A stretch of 64,000 bases of DNA. Source: a virus. Its lineage: Duplodnaviria; Caudoviricetes. The stretch spans positions 149,707 through 213,706 of the IMG/VR virus record IMGVR_UViG_3300043434_000734; one strand, given 5' to 3'. Below the pieces are notes generated by a model. It saw nothing but the letters and a program-made list of their open reading frames with translations, was not told where the DNA came from and ran no database searches. Of the stretch, positions 956-35,116 are shown one piece after another. Within the stretch, counting starts at the first letter, position 1. Every line of letters begins with the position of its first letter. The translations under genes were made by a program, and so were the position numbers.

Positions 956-1105
956 TGTAGTGTGACGAAACTTGGCAGACGTGCCCTCCTGTCTCGGGGG
1001 TGTGGAACAAGAAATAGGTTAATAATATGGGGTAGACCACCAGCCGGCCGGCGAAGTGTTATTAACTGAATCTCCATTTAAGTGGTTCGAATCCCTTCAC
1101 TACAG
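956..1105 (+). tRNA. tRNA-like RNA with GTC anticodon and 80-nt variable region
   Basis: TGTAGTG/CACTACA acceptor, class-II-like 3-bp D-stem, CCCTC-CTGTCTC-GGGGG, extra region 1001-1080, T-loop TTCGAAT, G discriminator. Confidence 0.75.
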
Positions 1106-2345: not shown

Positions 2346-3160
2346 TTTAAAAATATTGGCCGCCTATGGTCGATTAAAATAAACCACGAAAGTGGGATAA
2401 AGTGACGAGTCCTTGGTTGGGACAAGTTGCGGTTTCAGTAATGGAACTTGAGTAGGCAAGTGGAGTATCGTTGAACCTTAAGTACTGAGGGTAACACTTT
2501 AGGGAAAGTGGTTTGATGACTGAGCAATCCGAGTTGTTTGGTTGAGGTGGGAACACCAATAAGAATAATCCATAGAGTTATTGTGAGAAATATGGTTATC
2601 CGACTATATGATTACGTGATTCAATATGATGGGAATCTTAAAACCGAAAGGTATGGTGAAGTACGAGTGGTGTCGTTATCATCCTTTATTAAACTCTACC
2701 AAGGGTTTAGTTTTGAAGGGGTCCAAAAATATGGTAGCAGGGATGTTACAGAGAGTAGTTTAGTATCGAGTCGCTCAAAAGGTGGCTTGGCTAGGTGACG
2801 AACCACTACTTTCCAAATTCGGATAACTAAATTTTGTTAATTTTGGTTTAACAACTTAAAATCATACAAGAAAAAGTGTTCGTCAGTCGTTGTAGACAGG
2901 TGGCTACATAGTCGTGAGGGGTTCACGGCCACAAAGGGTCTCAAGCCCAATGTGATTTTTAAAAAAGTTCTCTAAACCCGCAAGGTTGAATCAGGGAGGC
3001 ATCTTTGATGAGTAATGAGTATTAAAAGAGTATATAACGACTCAAGGATTGGTTAATCTAATTGACCGCCGCTGATTGGTACTACTCAAAAGGTAGTGGA
3101 TATGGGAAGAATCAAATAATGTCCCTAAGTCAATCAAAAAATGGTGTAATCTCAGCCCTT
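2346..3160 (+). ncRNA. large structured ncRNA, GOLLD-like (ends approximate)
   Basis: ~800 nt without a credible ORF, G-richer than the flanks, many hairpins (ACCAC-GAAA-GTGG, ACC-GAAA-GGT, two CTCAAAAG-loop hairpins), own promoter, near tRNAs; size and context fit GOLLD, family not verified. Confidence 0.65.
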
Positions 3161-3238
3161 TCTTTTTTCAATTTTGTGTAAAATTGAATGGTGGAATTAA
3201 GTACGATATTAAAAAACCGTGCGGCCCTCAACAAAATT

Positions 3239-5729: not shown

Positions 5730-6130
5730 GGGGATGTCTGGTATTGATTTCAGGTATCAGGGATAAATGGCACGTAGTCAGAATTCATCTATGACTTAAA
5801 TCCACGGTGAAACATTTTAGACGGCAACGTTTACAACAATATGGAAATTGCAGGTTTACTTGCAACTTCTAAAGTAGCGGCCTAACCAAGTTAGCACTAC
5901 ACTCGGGTCGATGTACATATAACCTAGGAACAGAAGTACTTAAGGTGTGATACCACCTAAGAGTGTCAAAGGTCTCGTTCAGAGGGCTACCTTAAAGTGA
6001 ACTCGACACAGTTATAGGGAACGATGTTAAAATAGGAACCTTTTATTTGTCTGTTGTGAACTAACAGAATAAACGTGTAGTCATTTATTGTTGAACAGGA
6101 AAGACACGGGTTCGACTCCCGTCATCTCCA
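5730..6130 (+). ncRNA. ssrA: tmRNA
   Basis: 5' GGGGATG pairs with 3' CATCTCC-A with a G3.U pair, T-arm ACGGG-TTCGACT-CCCGT, tag ORF 5823-5885 GNVYNNMEIAGLLATSKVAA*. Confidence 0.93.
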
Positions 6131-6133
6131 CAT

Positions 6134-12502: not shown

Positions 12503-13588
12503 TTAGAGGTCTTTTTTTATGTAATCCAATGCTGAAGATATCACTTGATGCATATCATAATATTTATATTCTGCCAACCTTCCACCAAAATGAATATTTT
12601 CTAACTTATCAACTTCCGATTTGTATTTTAAATATATATTATTATTAGTCTTATCGTTAACTGGATAATAAGGTTCCGTTTCGTTTACTTTATAATCTGT
12701 CGGGTATTCAAATGTTATCCAAGTATTTTCGGTAATCACATCTTTTTCGAAATGTTTATGTTCTATTATACGAGTGTACTGAGTTTCTGAATCGGTATAA
12801 TTCATAACTGCACAACCTTGATAGTTATCCGTGTCCTTTTTAAAGTGTTCAAATCGAGTTGTCTTATATTCCAATTCACCATATTTGTAGTTAAAAAACT
12901 TATCAATCGGACCAGTATATATTACTTTACTGTGTTTAGGTAATTCATCTTTAAAGTAATCCACACCTAACTTCACATCAATACCATTCAATAATTTTTC
13001 AAATATTTGTGTATAACCACCAATTGGTATCCCTTGGTATTTGTCATTAAAATAGTTATTATCATATGTTAACCTAAAAGGTAAACGAGTAATAATTTCT
13101 TTCGGTAGTTCTTTGGGGTCTTTCTTCCATTGTTTAGAGGTATAATGTTTAATTAATTTCTCATACACATCTTTACCCACTAATTTAATTGCCTGTTCTT
13201 CTAAATTGGTTATTTCAGTAATTTCTGAACTTTGTTCCTCAATTATTTTTTTAGCTTCATTAGGGTGAGTAACTCCCCACAATTTATTGAACGTCCACAT
13301 ATTAAATGGTAAAGCATAAATTTCACCTTTGTAATTGGCGACAATCCTTAAACTAAAATTATTAAATGTAACAAATTGATTTATCCATTCCCAAACTTCA
13401 TCGTTTGATGTATGAAATATATGTGGACCGTATGTGTGTATATTAATACCGTCTTTATTTTCGGTATGACAATTGCCACCAATGTGATTTCTATTTTCAA
13501 TTACACAAACCTTATAACCTTTCTTGGTCAACTCGTGTGCACATATTGAACCGTAAAGTCCCGCACCAACAATTAAATAATCGTACAT
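12503..13588 (-). CDS. glf: UDP-galactopyranose mutase
   Basis: LIVGAGLYG FAD motif, HIGGNC, YGPHIFHT, FGGRLAEYKYYDMHQVI. Confidence 0.96.
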   Translation of the reverse strand: MYDYLIVGAGLYGSICAHELTKKGYKVCVIENRNHIGGNCHTENKDGINIHTYGPHIFHTSNDEVWEWINQFVTFNNFSLRIVANYKGEIYALPFNMWTFNKLWGVTHPNEAKKIIEEQSSEITEITNLEEQAIKLVGKDVYEKLIKHYTSKQWKKDPKELPKEIITRLPFRLTYDNNYFNDKYQGIPIGGYTQIFEKLLNGIDVKLGVDYFKDELPKHSKVIYTGPIDKFFNYKYGELEYKTTRFEHFKKDTDNYQGCAVMNYTDSETQYTRIIEHKHFEKDVITENTWITFEYPTDYKVNETEPYYPVNDKTNNNIYLKYKSEVDKLENIHFGGRLAEYKYYDMHQVISSALDYIKKDL

Positions 13589-13589
13589 A

Positions 13590-14429
13590 TTAATTTTTTA
13601 AATGAATAAACCCATCTTTCCATATTGTAGGTATTTTAATCCAATCGTCACACCAAATATCTTTTGGGTCATCATTAACATCAGGACCAAACCAAGTTTC
13701 AGGTGAAACAACAACTTTTTTATCTGATCTTGATAGGTATGCTCCCCACCAAGAAAATGAAGAATTGGAAATAATAAAATGATCACATAACGACAATAAC
13801 CATAATGCGTCACAATCAACATAGTTTTCCACAAACACCAAGTTAGGAAACACTAAATTTTCTTTACACCAATTAATATCGTCACTTAGTACCATAATTT
13901 TATCACAATTTGGTAAATGATTATACGCTTCATTAATATAATCTACAGTTACGACAGGATGTCTTCTTGGTTGTGTTAAATAATCACCTCTACGCACATT
14001 TATTGCCCCAACAGTCGATTTATTTAAAAATGGAAAATCAATCAATGCCCTTTTAACAAATTCTTTAGTTGGTGAAAATAAATCTCTTATCACTTCACTA
14101 TAATTTTTAAAAAATTTATCACTTTGAAACCAGCCAGCATAGGCCGTTGGACAATCGTCATATGGCTTTACATTTTCATATGTGAAAGGGACCCAAACTG
14201 TTTTAGTATCTTCAGTTTGATTGGATAAGTTAATGTTAAAATCTAATTTTCTAAATAAGGTTTTTTCTAAATGACCACTAGATGATTCCGTTTTTGGTAC
14301 AACAAACTGCCGATTAAATTCAATGGATTTGGCATACGCGTGTGCAATTTGAAACATCATATTACCAGTTCTTCCTTGTAATCTACTTGTTATATAATTT
14401 GACTGTAACGTTGTACTATTTTTTATCAT
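13590..14429 (-). CDS. alpha-1,2-fucosyltransferase-like (GT11)
   Basis: GRTGNMMFQ, GWFQS, NVRRGDYL, ISNSSFSWWGAYL. Confidence 0.9.
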   Translation of the reverse strand: MIKNSTTLQSNYITSRLQGRTGNMMFQIAHAYAKSIEFNRQFVVPKTESSSGHLEKTLFRKLDFNINLSNQTEDTKTVWVPFTYENVKPYDDCPTAYAGWFQSDKFFKNYSEVIRDLFSPTKEFVKRALIDFPFLNKSTVGAINVRRGDYLTQPRRHPVVTVDYINEAYNHLPNCDKIMVLSDDINWCKENLVFPNLVFVENYVDCDALWLLSLCDHFIISNSSFSWWGAYLSRSDKKVVVSPETWFGPDVNDDPKDIWCDDWIKIPTIWKDGFIHLKN

Positions 14430-15093
14430 TAATTAAATTATTTTTTTTTACAACTTCATAACTACTTTTAAAAATTTGAACATCGACACTATTACCAGAT
14501 GCGTCTAAATCACTTTTTCCGGCTCGTTGTGGGACTGCAATAGGATAAATTAAATATTTTTTAATATCGTGACGTTGACCCAACCATCCATCGATGGCCG
14601 AATCTTGAAAAGGAACGTATTCGTCTAAAATTCGTTTTATCGCAGTTCTTCGATATCCGACTGCGTGAGTTGTTAAAACAGTTGGTGCTAACATCAGTGT
14701 GTTAGATACGATATCAACTTCTCTAATCGGATGTCCACCAAAATATATCATATCCCAATCGGGAAATTGACTCATTTCGTTTAACCCATTTTCACATAAT
14801 GTTATACCGGGTAATTGATTAGTGTCATTATAAAAATATGCGTCATCCTCAAATATAACAACATTATCTAAACCATCATCATATATTTTTTTAAATAATT
14901 TAAAATATGTTAAACCACAATAACCGTGTTTTTTTATTGGGTCTGGTTCGTTAATCGAATCTTCTGCGGAGACCCGCTCAAAAAATTCTTTTAAACCATA
15001 TTTTGACATTTCATTTTCAAACTCCTCACGTCTATCTGGTCGTCTATCTAAATTAATATAGTACCCCTTGGAAAAATATTTATCAATTCTCAT
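14416..15093 (-). CDS. GT25-family glycosyltransferase
   Basis: YINLDRRPDRR, VVIFEDDA. Confidence 0.85.
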   Translation of the reverse strand: MRIDKYFSKGYYINLDRRPDRREEFENEMSKYGLKEFFERVSAEDSINEPDPIKKHGYCGLTYFKLFKKIYDDGLDNVVIFEDDAYFYNDTNQLPGITLCENGLNEMSQFPDWDMIYFGGHPIREVDIVSNTLMLAPTVLTTHAVGYRRTAIKRILDEYVPFQDSAIDGWLGQRHDIKKYLIYPIAVPQRAGKSDLDASGNSVDVQIFKSSYEVVKKNNLINDKK

Positions 15094-15766
15094 TTAATAT
15101 TTTTTTACAATAATCAATAAAAACTTGTTGTTTATCCCAAACCCTTATTTGGAAATTATGAAATGTCCCACTTTCAAATTCGGTCCCATTACCGTAACCA
15201 AATGGTTTATAACCAAAGTCACCACCATATTGCCAAGTAATGTTGGTTAATGTTTTTGTGGGATATGATAATACAATTTTCCTACCTTGTTTTTCATTCT
15301 CTCTTATAAATTGTTCCGCAACATCAACCTCTGTCATATAACCATCGGGATTTGGGTAATGTGTAAATTTAAAATTTTTACAATTAGACTCCTCCCATAG
15401 TTTTCTGGTAAAACTTAGAAAACTTGGAGCTATAAATGGTGGTGTTTTATGTGGATTCACATCAAAAACGTTAGATGCTTGTGCATTACCATATAACGTA
15501 TTATTATCGGAAATGATTTGAATTGCCCTTGTAACACAATCGTGACTAATAGGTATACTATCGACATCAAAAAAAGTAATTGAATCCCAATCTTTTCTGT
15601 TTACTAAATATTCTTCAATTGCCTCAGCGTGCCTATCACTTCTCAGATTATCTTTAAATTGAATCTGTTCCAATTCAATTCCAAAAAAATCAAATACTTT
15701 TTTTTGTAAGTTGACAATTTCAAATGGTAAATCATTACCGTAAAAACTAACTACATTGTGTTTCAT
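15083..15766 (-). CDS. putative GT-A glycosyltransferase
   Basis: FFDVDSIP DxD motif; inside the glycosyltransferase operon. Confidence 0.5.
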   Translation of the reverse strand: MKHNVVSFYGNDLPFEIVNLQKKVFDFFGIELEQIQFKDNLRSDRHAEAIEEYLVNRKDWDSITFFDVDSIPISHDCVTRAIQIISDNNTLYGNAQASNVFDVNPHKTPPFIAPSFLSFTRKLWEESNCKNFKFTHYPNPDGYMTEVDVAEQFIRENEKQGRKIVLSYPTKTLTNITWQYGGDFGYKPFGYGNGTEFESGTFHNFQIRVWDKQQVFIDYCKKILNEN

Positions 15767-16948
15767 CTATAATTTACTTATTAAATCAACCCACATTTGG
15801 CCAATTTTATTAACATTAAAATTAGATATGATGTGATTCTTACCTCTATTTCTAATATCCTCTTTTATTTGTGGATTTGATTCCAAGAATTTTATCTTTT
15901 CAACTATATTGTCGGTTATAGTGAATTTCCCTTCTAAATCTTTTGTTAAAGGTTCATTTTGCATTTTTTCCACATCAACCCCTTCAGGGAAATCTAACCA
16001 CACACAATAGTTTTCAAAATTTTCAGGTAACGCACCTAACGGATAAGTTACAACAATTGCACCTAAAGCTATGGCTTCCGCAACAACACAAGAGAATGTG
16101 TCTTTATGTACATCTTGATATGGCGTATATAACGGGTAAATAAAATATTCACTTTCGGCGATATTTGTAAAAAGTGTCTTCTTATCTACACCATTGTGTA
16201 AATTAAAAAAACTATCTTGGTGATGATGAGTTGCCATTAAATAATCAAAAGCGTGAAACTCACTATCCTCAAAATTTAACTTCCTAACTGCTTCTATTGA
16301 AACATTACCACCTCTAGCCCAAGCTGCGTGAAAAACAAATTTGTGTGGTTTTCTTTTTGGTTTAGAATATAAAACTTCTTGAATCATTTCATCCATAACA
16401 GGATTAGGAATTAAAGAAATTTGTACATTTTTAATTGATGTTTCATTATTTTTTATTGAACTTGTTAAAGGACCGGTCATATTTTTTTCCCATTCGGAAA
16501 TATGCACAAACCCTAACGATAAATTGTTTTGTTTTACGTAATCCTTAATATGGTCAATGCCGTATATCCATTGCATATGTGACCAATATATTAAACCTTT
16601 AGTAACTTTGATTGGTAATTTATCATAATCCTGAAACCATAACATACTAATGAGGATATCAAACTCTTTATTTTCAATTCCGTCAAAGTTAATATTTGTG
16701 TACTTAACACCATAAAATTCTTCTCCGGGTGTGTAAACTCTACCCTTTTCTTTATATTCAATTTCAAGTTTTTCTTCCAATTTATCGGCAACAAATACAA
16801 CATCGTGCCCTTGCTTGGATAAGTATTCAGCGACTAATACTGAACTAGTGTCAGTCCCTGAACCGCCCCCATTTCCATATCTTAAATTGTACCCATTCAG
16901 GTAATTACTTCTTCTACTGTTACCAATTACTATTAATGCTATTCTCAT
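15767..16948 (-). CDS. GT-B (GT4-like) glycosyltransferase
   Basis: DTFSCVVAEAIALGAIVVTYPLGALPE. Confidence 0.8.
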   Translation of the reverse strand: MRIALIVIGNSRRSNYLNGYNLRYGNGGGSGTDTSSVLVAEYLSKQGHDVVFVADKLEEKLEIEYKEKGRVYTPGEEFYGVKYTNINFDGIENKEFDILISMLWFQDYDKLPIKVTKGLIYWSHMQWIYGIDHIKDYVKQNNLSLGFVHISEWEKNMTGPLTSSIKNNETSIKNVQISLIPNPVMDEMIQEVLYSKPKRKPHKFVFHAAWARGGNVSIEAVRKLNFEDSEFHAFDYLMATHHHQDSFFNLHNGVDKKTLFTNIAESEYFIYPLYTPYQDVHKDTFSCVVAEAIALGAIVVTYPLGALPENFENYCVWLDFPEGVDVEKMQNEPLTKDLEGKFTITDNIVEKIKFLESNPQIKEDIRNRGKNHIISNFNVNKIGQMWVDLISKL

Positions 16949-18201
16949 TAGATTGTTTTTTCGTATCTGTCACTCCATTGTTTATCCTCATCAAATAAAT
17001 ACATCACAATTTTATTCGGTTTTTCGATTGTTTCTAAAGTTAAAGTGGTTTTATTCATTTCTAAGTTAACATATTGTGGTTCCGATTCAATTGTAAAATC
17101 TTTACGATACAATTCAAGACCTGATAACGTATGAACAGCAAAAGTCATAAACTTAGGTTTTTTAAAGTCAAATCGTTTAAAAAATTCAACATCCCATTCT
17201 AATGATAATTCATATTTATTTTTAATAAATTGGTTTTCCCAATCCGAAGGGTTAGGTGGTTCGTTAACCTTTAATGTATAATCTTGGATTACACATTTTT
17301 TAAAATCAAAACCTCCATAAACTTCATAATCGTGTAATGTCCTAACCGTACCTAAACCATATTCACCCATATCAATTCCATATTCTTGGGTTCCGAATAG
17401 TTGTCTAGTTTTATTACGTGCAAAAACGTCACGTTCCCCACTCGTTTTTTTAGTTTCACTATTCACCCCGTGATCATCCCAATGTTTTACACGATAATTT
17501 CTAGTGTATTCGTGCCACATAATCATACGGTATGGACTATAAAAATCATAACCATTAGTGAATGCTCTAACACTTAATGTCGTTTCTTCGGTATACCCAC
17601 CAAAATAAATGTCAGGGTCGTACGGTACTTCTTTAATGAATTCACCTGAAGTAAAATAGAAGTGACCACTAATTGTTCTTGCCTTTATTACCCTATTTCT
17701 CGACTTGTAATCTTGTATATACCAAGGCATACTCATCAATAATCTATCACCACTAAATTCATATTGTGACATTAAACAAGGTGTAGGTATCCAAGTACTT
17801 TCTTCTGATTTGGGGTCAAATGGTGTACAATATGTTGAAATAACCGGTTTTTCCGATGTCCCCAATGCTTGGTTATAATCTTCTAAAACCATAACATCCC
17901 AATCTTGGACAAATCTATGGTGAGAGTCAATTTGTAACGTATACTCCTCATCATCGTACAATGTATTAGTGATATGACGTGCCCAACCAAGACCCTCACT
18001 TTCACTATAATGATGTTTACTTACCCTAAATTGTGGATTACCATCAAACATATCAATTGGTTCACTACTATCGTATTGCCAACAAATACCAAACACTAAA
18101 TTTTTAGGGTTTTTAGCTTTTTTTATCATATCCTCGATTGTGGGAACCAATTCAGGATCACGATATGAGGCTATTTGTACGAAAATTTTTTCTTTCTTCA
18201 T
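16948..18201 (-). CDS. GT60-like GlcNAc transferase (Skp1 Gnt1-like)
   Basis: IFVQIASYRDPEL, GLGWARH, YTLQIDSHHRF. Confidence 0.85.
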   Translation of the reverse strand: MKKEKIFVQIASYRDPELVPTIEDMIKKAKNPKNLVFGICWQYDSSEPIDMFDGNPQFRVSKHHYSESEGLGWARHITNTLYDDEEYTLQIDSHHRFVQDWDVMVLEDYNQALGTSEKPVISTYCTPFDPKSEESTWIPTPCLMSQYEFSGDRLLMSMPWYIQDYKSRNRVIKARTISGHFYFTSGEFIKEVPYDPDIYFGGYTEETTLSVRAFTNGYDFYSPYRMIMWHEYTRNYRVKHWDDHGVNSETKKTSGERDVFARNKTRQLFGTQEYGIDMGEYGLGTVRTLHDYEVYGGFDFKKCVIQDYTLKVNEPPNPSDWENQFIKNKYELSLEWDVEFFKRFDFKKPKFMTFAVHTLSGLELYRKDFTIESEPQYVNLEMNKTTLTLETIEKPNKIVMYLFDEDKQWSDRYEKTI

Positions 18202-24956: not shown

Positions 24957-26531
24957 ATGAGAATACAAGATTTGGTTTTTGACGTATTAGTTGAAGAAGT
25001 TAAGAATAAGAAACTTTTTAACTATCTATTAGAAAAATGGTATGGTAATAAACCAACCGACGAACAAATAAAACAGTGTGAAGAAATCATCGAGGATTTT
25101 AATAGATTAAAAGATGGTTTTTCAACTAAGAAGTCCCAAATACTCACATTTTTAACAATGTTTGATGGACTTCACGGGTCTGAAAAATTTGATGAGAATA
25201 ATTTAAAAGATATTACCAAATACTCGTTCACACAAATTTTAGCTCTATTAGACGAATATGATGAAGATGGGGCAAACGAAGAATCCGAAGATAGTATTTT
25301 TGCAGGGTCAGATAAAAAAGCAACACCTGAAAGAATTCAAGCGTCAAAGGACCTTTGGAATGGTGATGAATATAAAATAATTGACGAAGGAGATTTAAGA
25401 GTGTATGCCATACCTGACCAAAGAGTTTCAATGAATTTTGGTTATTATGAACAATATATTGCAAGAAAACAAGGTGGTGAACAGTGGTGTGTAACTGGTA
25501 GAAATTCAAGTGATTCACGCTCAAATTTGTGGGGGTCATATAGAAATAGAAGAACTTTCTATTTTGTTATTGATGACACCAAAGATGAAAATAACAAACA
25601 CCACGTAAGTGCACTTCAAAAAACCGAAGGAGACAGCCCAACTGGTTTTAGATTAACCAATGCTAGAAATGATGGTGACCACCCACTTACTTGGGAAGAT
25701 ATTGTTACCATTTATCCAAAATTATCCGAACACCGAGATTTAATCGTCACCGTTAAATACGATGAAGAATCTGAATTGGAAAATAAAGATCTTGTTAACC
25801 GAATCAACGAAAGAGAGGGGGATAAACTTGAATTTAGAAGAATGTCAAGGCCCTATAAAAAGGCATACATTGAAAGAGGTTCGGTCATTAGTAAAGCGCG
25901 TTCTTGGGAATCTATAGACAGAACGTTGAGAAATTTATATATATTAACCACAACTGATAGAAACGCATTAGATAGATTTCAAACTTTTGAATTGATGTCG
26001 GAAATCAAAAAAGTCGGTAGTGAATTTAATTTATTAAATAATAGATTAAAGCAAGTTGGTTTGAACGGAGTCTCGATAATTTATGACAATTTGATGAAAA
26101 CCGAATTTGATGTTGCTAGAACTAGTATCGACAACAGGGCAATCAAAATGTATAAAAGTAGAAGAACCCATAAAATGGGTTTATATAATGGTCAACAAGC
26201 CTCTTGGGTAAATTCAAACGGTGTAACATTTGAACCACATTATTCTGAAAGTGACACGTCACTTTATGTTGATGACGCTGGAAATATGTACGTTGTTGAG
26301 ACATTTACAACGGGAGGACAACCAGATAACACAAGTTTCTATTGTGTATACCCAATTGTTGAAACTAATGAATTAGCTAGCGGTCATTTCATAGATGCTC
26401 AAATGTTCGAACAGTTAAAAACCAAATTACACCCAAAAGATGAAGGTCAAGAAGATGATGACGTTGTAAGAATATCGGATTTTAATCCCGAAACGGATGT
26501 TAATATTAAAGAAATGAAAAAGGGACTATAA
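24957..26531 (+). CDS. large hypothetical protein, probable virion protein
   Basis: 524 aa; VLVEE leader; QWCVT...YFVID motif. Confidence 0.75.
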   Translation: MRIQDLVFDVLVEEVKNKKLFNYLLEKWYGNKPTDEQIKQCEEIIEDFNRLKDGFSTKKSQILTFLTMFDGLHGSEKFDENNLKDITKYSFTQILALLDEYDEDGANEESEDSIFAGSDKKATPERIQASKDLWNGDEYKIIDEGDLRVYAIPDQRVSMNFGYYEQYIARKQGGEQWCVTGRNSSDSRSNLWGSYRNRRTFYFVIDDTKDENNKHHVSALQKTEGDSPTGFRLTNARNDGDHPLTWEDIVTIYPKLSEHRDLIVTVKYDEESELENKDLVNRINEREGDKLEFRRMSRPYKKAYIERGSVISKARSWESIDRTLRNLYILTTTDRNALDRFQTFELMSEIKKVGSEFNLLNNRLKQVGLNGVSIIYDNLMKTEFDVARTSIDNRAIKMYKSRRTHKMGLYNGQQASWVNSNGVTFEPHYSESDTSLYVDDAGNMYVVETFTTGGQPDNTSFYCVYPIVETNELASGHFIDAQMFEQLKTKLHPKDEGQEDDDVVRISDFNPETDVNIKEMKKGL

Positions 26532-33563: not shown

Positions 33564-34355
33564 ATGAAAATAACTGTAATTGGAGAATTATGTACTGACA
33601 TTTTCGTTTATGGTGAAACTAAACGATTAAGTCCTGAGGCACCCGTACCCGTGTTCAATCCATTATTTACCGAAGAAAATCCAGGTATGGCAGGTAATGT
33701 GGTTGAAAATCTAAAACCGATGGGTTTGGATGTTCAAATCAATTTCATTCACCAAACTAAAAACATAACTAAAACTCGTTATGTTGACTATAAGTCAAAT
33801 CATATGTTTATCAGGGTTGATGATGGGGAAGATTCTATTGATGAATTAATTTTAACAGACGAAATCATTCGACAGATAAAAGATTCTGATGCCGTAATTG
33901 TGAGTGATTATAATAAAGGGTTTTTAACTGAGAAAACACTAAGATTGATTACGGACAATTCTAAGTTTTCCATAATGGACACTAAGAAGAAAATAACCAC
34001 CGATATATTAGAGTATTTTGATTTTGTCAAATTAAACGAATCGGAATTTAATAAACACGATTTTAACCGACATTGGTTAAATCGTATAATTGTAACATTA
34101 GGTTCTAAAGGGGCAAAATATATTGATGAGATTTTCCCTTCGCCCGACCCTAAAGAAACAATTGATGTTAGTGGTGCCGGTGATACATTTACAGCATCAT
34201 TCACATTAAAATACTTAGAAACTAAAGACATAAAACAATCAATAATTTATGCTAATAAAATGGCATCTATTGTTGTATCAAAAAGAGGAGTAACAACACC
34301 GTGGAAAAAGCAATTATCACTGGAACAAAGGGATTTGTTGCCAAAAATTTATTAA
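33564..34355 (+). CDS. hldE: heptose-7-phosphate kinase (HldE/RfaE kinase domain, PfkB family)
   Basis: RLSPEAPVPV, AGNV, SDYNKG, DVSGAGDT. Confidence 0.88.
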   Translation: MKITVIGELCTDIFVYGETKRLSPEAPVPVFNPLFTEENPGMAGNVVENLKPMGLDVQINFIHQTKNITKTRYVDYKSNHMFIRVDDGEDSIDELILTDEIIRQIKDSDAVIVSDYNKGFLTEKTLRLITDNSKFSIMDTKKKITTDILEYFDFVKLNESEFNKHDFNRHWLNRIIVTLGSKGAKYIDEIFPSPDPKETIDVSGAGDTFTASFTLKYLETKDIKQSIIYANKMASIVVSKRGVTTPWKKQLSLEQRDLLPKIY

Positions 34356-35116
34356 ACGAAATAAAAGATAAATTCGAAGTTTTAGAAATTAACGAAGATA
34401 TTTTTGATAATCCGAAATGGTACGATGAAATTTTATTCATACTAAATGAGTTTCTACCGGATGTGATATTTCACGTCGGGGCTTGTTCTGATACGTTAGA
34501 AACCGACGTTAACTATATGATGACGAGGAATTACGAATTTACTCGTTGTTTGTCCGAGTGGTCGAATTCACTTAATAAAAAATTAATTTACTCATCATCA
34601 GCCGCCAACTACGGTATCAACGGTGTTTATCCATCTAATCTTTATGGATGGAGTAAATATGTTGCGGAACAATTGGTTATTAAAAATGGCGGAATCGGAT
34701 TAAGATACTTCAATGTGTACGGTCCATTAGAGGACCATAAAGGTAGAATGGCCTCGGTTGCGTATCAAATGTTAGAAAAACAAAAAAAAGGTCAGGAAAT
34801 CAAACTATACCCCCTTAAACCACACCGCGATTTTGTTTACGTGAAAGATGTTGTCGATGCTAATCTTTTTGCTTATGAATTCTACAACCAACATTCAGGT
34901 GATTGGTATGAAGTGGGTAGTGGGGAATCAAGAACATTTGAGGATGTTTTGGATATTTTAAAAATTGATTACACCTACTTTGATGAAAAAGACATCCCTA
35001 AAGGTTATCAGTTTAACACTAAAAGCAAGTCAATGCATTGGATGTTGGAGTGGGAGCCGAAATGGAATTTAGAAAATGGGTTGAGGGATTATATGGATTT
35101 TCTACGAACCAAATAA
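34301..35116 (+). CDS. hldD: ADP-L-glycero-D-manno-heptose 6-epimerase
   Basis: GACSDT, YSSSAANYG, LYGWSK, LRYFNVYGP, HKGRMAS, RDFVYVKD; GTG start. Confidence 0.88.
   Translation: MEKAIITGTKGFVAKNLLNEIKDKFEVLEINEDIFDNPKWYDEILFILNEFLPDVIFHVGACSDTLETDVNYMMTRNYEFTRCLSEWSNSLNKKLIYSSSAANYGINGVYPSNLYGWSKYVAEQLVIKNGGIGLRYFNVYGPLEDHKGRMASVAYQMLEKQKKGQEIKLYPLKPHRDFVYVKDVVDANLFAYEFYNQHSGDWYEVGSGESRTFEDVLDILKIDYTYFDEKDIPKGYQFNTKSKSMHWMLEWEPKWNLENGLRDYMDFLRTK

Follow-up and report, generated by a model that had tools for sequence, protein, structure and literature searches.

What kind of RNA gene follows the array of transfer RNA (tRNA) genes that opens this piece of phage genome? The window, a stretch of 64,000 nucleotides (nt) covering positions 149,707 to 213,706 of the IMG/VR record IMGVR_UViG_3300043434_000734 (Caudoviricetes), carries at positions 956–1105, on the plus strand, a 150-nt sequence that a sequence-only reading had described as a full tRNA frame with a D stem of 3 base pairs (bp), the anticodon loop CTGTCTC and a very large branched variable arm. 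The frame, the D stem and the loop are all there, and the element is a real RNA gene, overlooked by standard tRNA finders and by Rfam. It is well supported that it belongs to a widespread phage RNA gene with the ancestry and shape of tRNA-Asp; judged from sequence conservation, it is equally well supported that nucleotides facing the synthetase have been kept while the features of a decoder have been lost, and that the arm is structured and bears a signature of dimerisation. The reading that combines these points, a dimerising, non-decoding tRNA-Asp mimic, has in our estimate a probability of about one half, and the evidence for it is given below together with that for its competitors.

A family of tRNA-Asp-shaped RNAs

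The RNaseH_like open reading frame (ORF) downstream of the element served as a handle to 43 related loci, in most of which BLAST and motif searches located the element, and 19 distinct copies make up alignment A1. The covariance model R1 yielded 87 full-length copies, 70 of them distinct, and it is to these 70 that the conservation counts refer. The 87 copies score 118–182 bits with R1, and the next matches, at 35 bits or less, are ordinary tRNAs, most of them of class II; the whole window copy (956–1105), which is also covered by alignments A1 and A2, scores 168.6 bits (E about 8e-42). Copies are 147–176 nt long. A search for homologues had been proposed as a check on the sequence-only reading, and the insert turned out to be both present and structured in the relatives. 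At least 118 IMG/VR phage contigs match a degenerate pattern taken from the arm, and each of two near-complete phage genomes, of 324 and 289 kilobases (kb), holds exactly one copy.

Covariation is found throughout the drawn structure, hairpin A of the arm excepted. With the hand-drawn pairing, 96.6% of cells pair, against 41–52% when the partners are slid, and double changes occur at 29 of the 46 pairs, against 7–10 in the slid controls; none of 500 shuffles reaches the observed values. Compensatory changes were reported by RNAalifold in 25 of 41 pairs for the 19 copies of alignment A1. The folding energy of the single window sequence is unremarkable (z = -0.19) and uninformative.

The element shows that standard tRNA annotation overlooks such genes. 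Default ARAGORN makes no call at 956–1105, Rfam 15 gives no family there, RF00005 included, either at the gathering threshold or at E up to 10, and none of the copies in the relatives reaches the threshold of the Rfam tRNA family (RF00005). Relaxed settings had been suggested for this purpose: with relaxed score and intron options ARAGORN finds the same ends but forces a tRNA-Arg(ccg) model that needs a 57-nt 'intron' and whose anticodon stem is poor, which was rejected as spurious, whereas in silico deletion of the arm (1003–1076) leads default ARAGORN to call a 76-nt tRNA-Asp(gtc).

The stretch is present in freshwater and lake metagenomes from several studies and has relatives as long as 334 kb among the IMG/VR contigs, which points to a giant freshwater phage. 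In the GenBank phage records, a distant-mode blastn search matched tRNAs and GOLLD flanks but nothing homologous to the element. Among GTDB genomes the matches to the pattern are mostly chance, with two true hits on short contigs binned in metagenome-assembled genomes of Bacteroidia and Cytophagales, which are weak hints at the host. A motif in a 2023 catalogue of viral candidate RNAs, DNAVirus_1850, once overlapped a tRNA-Asp call and is a possible counterpart of the element.

Aspartate identity and decoding features of the core

All parts of a tRNA body can be assigned, each on the plus strand. The 7-bp acceptor stem (956–962, UGUAGUG, with 1098–1104) pairs in 100% of cells, with double changes in five of the seven pairs and nine distinct covarying versions; on its 5' strand U1, G2 and U3 are nearly invariant, and on the 3' strand with the discriminator G73 at 1105 (together 1098–1105) G73 and C71 are found in 70/70 copies and A72 in 69/70. 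Then come U8, G9 and a D arm like that of class II tRNAs (963–983), with a covarying 3-bp stem (965–967 with 980–982) and a loop holding A14, A15, G18, G19, C20 and A21, of which A21 is present in 69/70 and the others in 70/70. The anticodon-like arm (984–1000) consists of 5 bp (984–988 with 996–1000), all five with double changes, and the loop CUGUCUC (989–995). Beyond the variable arm, U47-U48 and the T arm occupy 1078–1097, pairing 1080–1082 plus 1084–1085 with 1093–1097 around the T loop UUCGAAU (1086–1092); U1083 is left bulged in the window copy, a bulge shared by 19 of the 70. The window copy does not encode CCA, and the first base after it is C. That C opens the trailer in 86 of the 87 copies, as it is in the canonical tRNA-Asp genes of these phages, and CCA is encoded in 6/87; the resemblance of the trailers fits shared processing.

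Apart from the 7-bp acceptor stem, the T loop and the G18-G19 elbow of a tRNA cloverleaf, the family has the core tertiary nucleotides as well: U8, G9, A14, A15, G18, G19, C20, U48, G53, U54, U55, C56, A58 and C61 are invariant in 70/70, so that an L-shaped tRNA fold is to be expected. The bacterial determinants of aspartate identity are G73, G10, G34, U35, C36 and C38, with G2-C71 as a minor one and G1-C72 conserved (PMC9976931). The sequence-only reading had noted G34, U35, C36, C38, G73 and G2-C71 in the window copy, and the family keeps them, and with them most of what aspartyl-tRNA synthetase (AspRS) reads, G34, U35, C36, G73 and G2-C71 being found in 70/70 copies and C38 in 68/70. The U1-A72 (69/70) and U3-A70 pairs are fixed or nearly so, and acceptor pairs 4–7 and positions 10, 26, 32 and 33 vary freely. 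No AspRS-type synthetase (PF00152) is found in the two near-complete relatives, so any synthetase partner would be that of the host.

A U at position 33 and a purine at position 37 are nearly universal requirements of decoding tRNAs. The pyrimidine at position 37, singled out earlier as atypical, is a rule of the family, with U in 63 copies, C in 7 and a purine in none, while position 33 may hold U (50 copies), C (13) or A (7); an anticodon loop competent for decoding is thus not what these RNAs have. The short variable loop of class I tRNAs (4–5 nt) is likewise missing, its place being taken by the 76-nt branched arm in all 70 copies. An ordinary tRNA-Asp of 72–77 nt, with the loop CUGUCAC, resides in 20 of the 87 loci together with the element, which argues that the element is not the working tRNA-Asp of the phage. 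Taken together, the constant pyrimidine at 37, the variation at 33 and the co-resident canonical tRNA-Asp make a non-decoding tRNA-Asp mimic the most likely interpretation. The sequence-only reading, which had offered a chargeable tRNA scaffold with an added domain as a decoy, a non-ribosomal Asp donor or a spliced precursor, was right about scaffold and domain, and among its options the decoy or non-ribosomal Asp-tRNA-like RNA fits best.

With canonical tRNA-Asp(GUC) the element has in common the acceptor stem of 7 bp, G73, G2-C71, GUC, C38, the T loop, the G18/G19 elbow, the position in a tRNA array and the trailer without encoded CCA. It differs from it in the 76-nt arm (against 4–5 nt), the 3-bp class-II-like D stem, the pyrimidine 37, the variable 33, U1-A72, the unconserved G10 and the fact that RF00005 and default ARAGORN miss it. 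By its loop at positions 33 and 37 and by its variable region it lies outside the canonical tRNA-Asp family, and it is absent from Rfam 15. These likenesses are nonetheless what a working elongator would display, that is, a tRNA-Asp decoding GAC and GAU whose large arm is a handle for regulation, localisation or protection: the core is complete, GUC and G73 are invariant and C38 is kept, ARAGORN calls tRNA-Asp once the arm is removed, and the gene belongs to a tRNA array, where its spacing and its trailer are like those of a tRNA. Engineered tRNAs with aptamers in the variable region can, moreover, still function in translation. We regard this as unlikely, given a pyrimidine 37 in 70/70 copies, the replacement of U33 by C or A in 20/70, the canonical tRNA-Asp in 20/87 loci, the U1-A72 first pair and the variable G10.

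The fixed GUC, set among positions 32, 33 and 37 that are unlike those of canonical tRNA-Asp, would also suit an anti-defence decoy or sponge, whose tRNA-Asp-like loop is bound or cut by a tRNA-targeting nuclease or toxin of the host and whose avidity is raised by dimerisation. Evasion of anticodon nucleases by phage tRNAs through changes in the anticodon loop has been proposed (PMC10264068). An ORF of the 2H phosphoesterase / 2'-5' RNA ligase superfamily lies directly downstream of the element in 8 of the 70 distinct loci (e.g., at 1922–2449 in locus L039), matching PF13563 with 32 bits and the anti-CBASS protein Acb1 with 25 bits, which is below the cut-off of 27, and this neighbour also speaks for such a sponge. 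A tRNA-Asp-specific nuclease is, however, neither known nor identified in the presumed Bacteroidota hosts, and the invariant acceptor end (G73, G2-C71 and U1-A72) and the elaborate conserved arm would be left unexplained, which makes a sponge of this kind improbable.

The variable arm and its palindromic tip

The variable arm (76 nt, 1002–1077), as drawn from RNAalifold and pair counts, starts with a base helix of 4 bp (1002–1005 with 1074–1077), followed by a 4-nt bulge and by a second helix of 3 bp (1010–1012 with 1071–1073). The internal loop AAUA (1013–1016) opposite GAA (1068–1070) has bases conserved in 66–70 of 70 copies and differs by a single base from the AGUA/GAA consensus of the loop E or sarcin-ricin motif. 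Above it, the arm stem that had been given as 10 bp enclosing small hairpins lies inside a longer covarying one, of 12 bp counting G-U (1017–1028 with 1056–1067), which ends in a three-way junction with two small hairpins. Hairpin A, GGGGUAGACCACC (1029–1041), is nearly invariant, the family reading GGGGU(A/U)GACCACC, with variation confined to the second base of its loop (56 A, 14 U). It shows no covariation, so that its pairing is putative, and near-invariance of this kind suggests a tertiary or protein contact; in the 19 copies found without the pattern, the GGGG, GAC and CAC positions are near-invariant too. That the GUC(U) loop might pair with the invariant (A/U)GAC in hairpin A was considered and rejected, as no compensatory change was seen. 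The loop UCGUCUC accompanies U at the hairpin-A loop position in 10/10 cases, in what looks like a clade signature.

In metatranscriptome contigs, which stem from two or more studies, the sequence passes without a break from the anticodon arm through the variable arm: X17 (973–1095), which reaches the T arm, X18 (973–1074) and X15 (974–1042, continuing into the sequence of a relative). They are supporting evidence, not proof, for the presence of the arm in accumulated RNA. The RNA-library contigs leave flanking coding sequence (e.g., 1101–1210) uncovered and show no joint that skips 1001–1080, but absences among contigs prove nothing. For several of these contigs the start lies at 973/974, perhaps because the D loop has diverged or because the sequence there is adapter-like. 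In the D loop and stem, window positions 973–985 (CAGACGTG) match part of the Illumina adapter, and one loose end of X18 at 973 resembles an adapter chimera, which may explain the contig starts at 973/974.

These contigs bear, with the conservation of the arm, on the reading in which the gene encodes a precursor that loses an intron of 76–80 nt and matures into a tRNA of about 75 nt, and together they make it unlikely. ARAGORN does accept the tRNA-Asp frame left after in silico removal of 1003–1076. No part of the RNA is better conserved than the insert, however, which covaries as a folded domain and stays attached to the body in the RNA libraries (as contigs only, with short flanks); no Rfam ribozyme or intron model matches, and the spliced product would still have U37. 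The introns known from tRNAs of bacteria and phages belong to group I and lie in the anticodon loop. The spliced precursor, named as one option by the sequence-only reading, consequently has very little to recommend it.

Hairpin B (1043–1052, GCCGGCCGGC), at the tip of the arm, is a perfect palindrome and is predicted to form a symmetric kissing loop or an intermolecular duplex. A perfect palindrome of 10–12 nt is found at this place in 67 of the 70 copies, in 12 versions whose central tetranucleotide is UGCA, GGCC, AGCU or CCGG, and, on a tree built without those columns, the centre has undergone about 16 parsimony changes, nearly always from palindrome to palindrome. The two innermost 'pairs' are impossible within one hairpin, so that their covariation points to pairing between two molecules. 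Covariation of the innermost positions of a palindrome has been used in the same way to argue for symmetric kissing loops in L21a of GOLLD and L9.3 of OLE (Kretsch et al., PMC12286853), and the loop of hairpin B has the palindromic character by which that work recognises symmetric kissing-loop RNAs. For the window copy RNAcofold predicts an intermolecular helix of 10 bp, with a dimer 18.9 kcal/mol more stable than two monomers. We thus predict, from comparative analysis and modelling, that the element forms a homodimer through the palindrome of its tip. The palindromic hairpin B is a new finding here and, like the dimerisation that it predicts, was missing from the sequence-only reading.

An extra hairpin in the D loop, inserted between what are positions 970 and 971 of the window, occurs in 44 of the 70 relatives (e.g., L013 2803–2972, L028 2653–2812 and L104 4455–4613), and the window copy is without it. 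In one class this hairpin has a 7-nt loop CUC(A/U)GUU, and the UGUCUC found in the anticodon-like loop recurs in its stem and loop; in another the tips are perfectly palindromic, with the centres AAUU, CUAG, UUAA, GUAC, AGCU or CGCG. Wherever both hairpins of an RNA are palindromic, the D-loop centre differs from that of hairpin B, and the palindromic D-loop hairpin would therefore be a second, orthogonal self-pairing site.

The closest comparison for the tip is offered by GOLLD, ROOL and OLE, in which tips also switch between palindromic tetranucleotides and loop positions covary that are unpairable within one chain, and which, like the element, are phage-borne and lie near tRNA islands. The element is unlike them in being 150 nt long and tRNA-shaped and in lacking any sequence or model match to GOLLD; in addition, the single palindromic site of the window copy predicts a dimer and not a cage of the GOLLD type, the oligomer being predicted here from sequence. 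A more direct connection would exist if the element were the partner or cargo of a phage GOLLD assembly, or a building block of an RNA-only multimer, with the tRNA-like body as a structural or processing handle. A GOLLD gene does follow the element in the window at a distance of 1.6 kb, the two near-complete relatives have one GOLLD each, 4 of 10 long loci have it too, and the second, different palindromic hairpin in the D loop of some relatives would, with hairpin B, allow chains or rings. It has also been proposed that GOLLD cages hold phage tRNAs (PMC12286853). Nevertheless, in all 5 loci tested the GOLLD region of the same phage lacks the palindrome core of hairpin B and shows no complementarity to the tip, the window copy has one palindromic site only, and the conserved aspartate identity nucleotides would be without explanation, so we judge a role tied to GOLLD to be quite unlikely.

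The gene, its structure, its pattern of conservation, its appearance in RNA libraries, arm included, and the canonical tRNA-Asp genes in the same loci are observations; for the tRNA-Asp mimic that we favour, we infer processing, AspRS binding or charging, dimerisation and purpose as follows. The element would be transcribed with the tRNA array and presumably released by RNase P and 3' trimming, with CCA added as in its neighbours, and would fold into a normal L-shaped tRNA core. It would present the nucleotides that AspRS reads (G34, U35, C36, C38, G73 and G2-C71) after losing what the ribosome needs (a purine 37 and a fixed U33), and it would most likely bind the AspRS of the host, perhaps being aspartylated, without an ordinary elongator role. 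The 76-nt arm, with its three-way junction and an internal loop resembling loop E, would act as a rigid rod that ends in a self-complementary tip, and two copies joined tip to tip would form a two-fold symmetric dimer presenting two tRNA-Asp bodies. Least certain is the purpose, which may be that of a bivalent ligand, decoy or substrate of the homodimeric AspRS, or of another factor that recognises tRNA-Asp, during infection. In a bolder version, which is possible but which we would not expect, a tip-joined dimer that can be aminoacylated twice clamps the dimeric AspRS of the host at both active sites or serves as a non-ribosomal donor of Asp, and the second palindromes in the D loop of some relatives make chains or rings.

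Several points weigh against a dimerising mimic of tRNA-Asp. Two aspartate features are absent, which the sequence-only reading overlooked: G10, a bacterial aspartate determinant, is kept in no more than 30/70 copies and replaced by A in the window copy, and the first pair is U1-A72 instead of the bacterial G1-C72. The invariant GUC could serve a reader other than AspRS, and, since class II synthetases approach the tRNA from the side of the variable arm, a 76-nt arm could hinder AspRS. Most of the 87 copies were found by a pattern requiring hairpin A and part of the 3' strand, so the conservation there is partly ascertainment. As to the tip, three of the 70 copies have no palindrome, the tree on which the switches of the centre were counted rests on a short alignment, and the palindromes could in principle stem from a site that acts in the DNA or from mutation biased toward palindromic insertions. 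As to the RNA, the contig flanks outside the arm measure 29 and 18 nt, below the 31-letter bridging rule, and RNA libraries can also contain DNA.

Should the bolder version be true, it would define a new class of tRNA mimic with quaternary structure, and giant phages would be seen to take over an aminoacylation step. If the dimer holds, RNA-only quaternary structure would extend from ornate RNAs of 600–800 nt to a tRNA mimic of 150 nt, which would offer a tractable model of how phages manipulate aminoacyl-tRNA synthetases or tRNA-directed defences. The pattern of conservation is unusually readable, as features recognised by the synthetase and by tRNA-processing enzymes appear to be kept and the needs of the ribosome dropped, in a small family that is widespread among the giant phages of freshwater and turns up in metatranscriptome libraries.

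Related systems and genomic setting

Phage tRNA islands hold other puzzling RNAs, among them GOLLD, ROOL and the species 1 and 2 RNAs of T4, the last two having been unexplained, to our knowledge, for 50 years. In setting, species 1 and 2 (rnaC and rnaD) come closest to the element, since they are stable tRNA-framed RNAs of 119–139 nt at the end of a phage tRNA cluster, and rnaC has a canonical T arm with a long hairpin just before it. Unlike the element, both are without a GUC anticodon-like arm and a palindromic tip, and homology is not detected by model R1, whose only match in the T4 locus (L046) is the tRNA-Ser, so that the analogy with rnaC and rnaD is one of genomic setting only. Closest in logic are the mimics that bind synthetases through an anticodon: in the yeast AspRS mRNA, which is a precedent for an AspRS-binding anticodon mimic, as in the E. 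coli thrS operator and the tRNA-like structures of plant viruses, tRNA identity nucleotides engage a synthetase outside decoding (PMC9976931). Those mimics are parts of mRNAs or viral genomes, whereas the element is free-standing, with a complete tRNA body and an extra domain, and its binding to a synthetase is predicted. In architecture, it resembles the class II tRNAs (Leu, Ser, bacterial Tyr and Sec) and the allo-tRNAs, which have a 3-bp D stem and a paired variable arm between the anticodon and T arms, and ordinary class II tRNAs are indeed the next-best matches of R1; the arm of the element is, however, about 4–5 times longer, branched and conserved in sequence, and its anticodon is that of a class I family.

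The window is low in G+C (0.30–0.37) and opens with tRNA genes for Val, Gly, Gly, Gln and Ser at 97–951. The last canonical member of this array, tRNA-Ser(GCT) at 865–951 on the plus strand (ARAGORN and Rfam), ends 4–5 nt before the element; a tRNA-Ser lies 5–16 nt upstream of the element in about 33 of the 87 loci, and tRNA arrays accompany it in 67/87. In some relatives R1 gives weak matches of 24–35 bits (L073 7683–7830, 6478–6616 and 5130–5276; L079 5866–5973; G002 25501–25627 and 727–839), which are oversized tRNA-framed sequences of 106–148 nt, and these phages seem to carry several non-standard tRNA-like RNAs.

Downstream, the RNaseH_like ORF (PF04308, DUF458/YkuK; 1143–1601) starts 38 nt after the element, and its extension in the ORF list upstream through the T arm (1056–1604) is an artefact. 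An obligate link between the two was considered and dropped: they are adjacent in 30/87 loci, and the ORF is absent from 37 loci with at least 2.5 kb of downstream sequence. No protein is an obligate neighbour of the element, no neighbouring family being found in more than 20 of the 70 distinct loci. Its regular neighbours are RNA genes. GOLLD itself (2350–3176; Rfam core 2751–3158, 314 bits) is covered by a 774-nt RNA-library contig at 2403–3176, with many more RNA-library contigs there, and is followed by a phage transfer-messenger RNA (tmRNA) gene (5730–6133, 83 bits) with a tag peptide ending in AA; both RNAs are found in 4 of 10 long loci, and the tmRNA accompanies GOLLD and the element in four relatives (L064, L066, L077 and L096). 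The remaining large ORFs of the window encode mostly glycosyltransferases and sugar enzymes, with no translation factors among them. Sugar genes at 12503–18201 and 33564–35116 include a UDP-galactopyranose mutase, several families of glycosyltransferases, a PfkB kinase and an epimerase, a sugar-modifying cluster that is unusual ballast for a phage.

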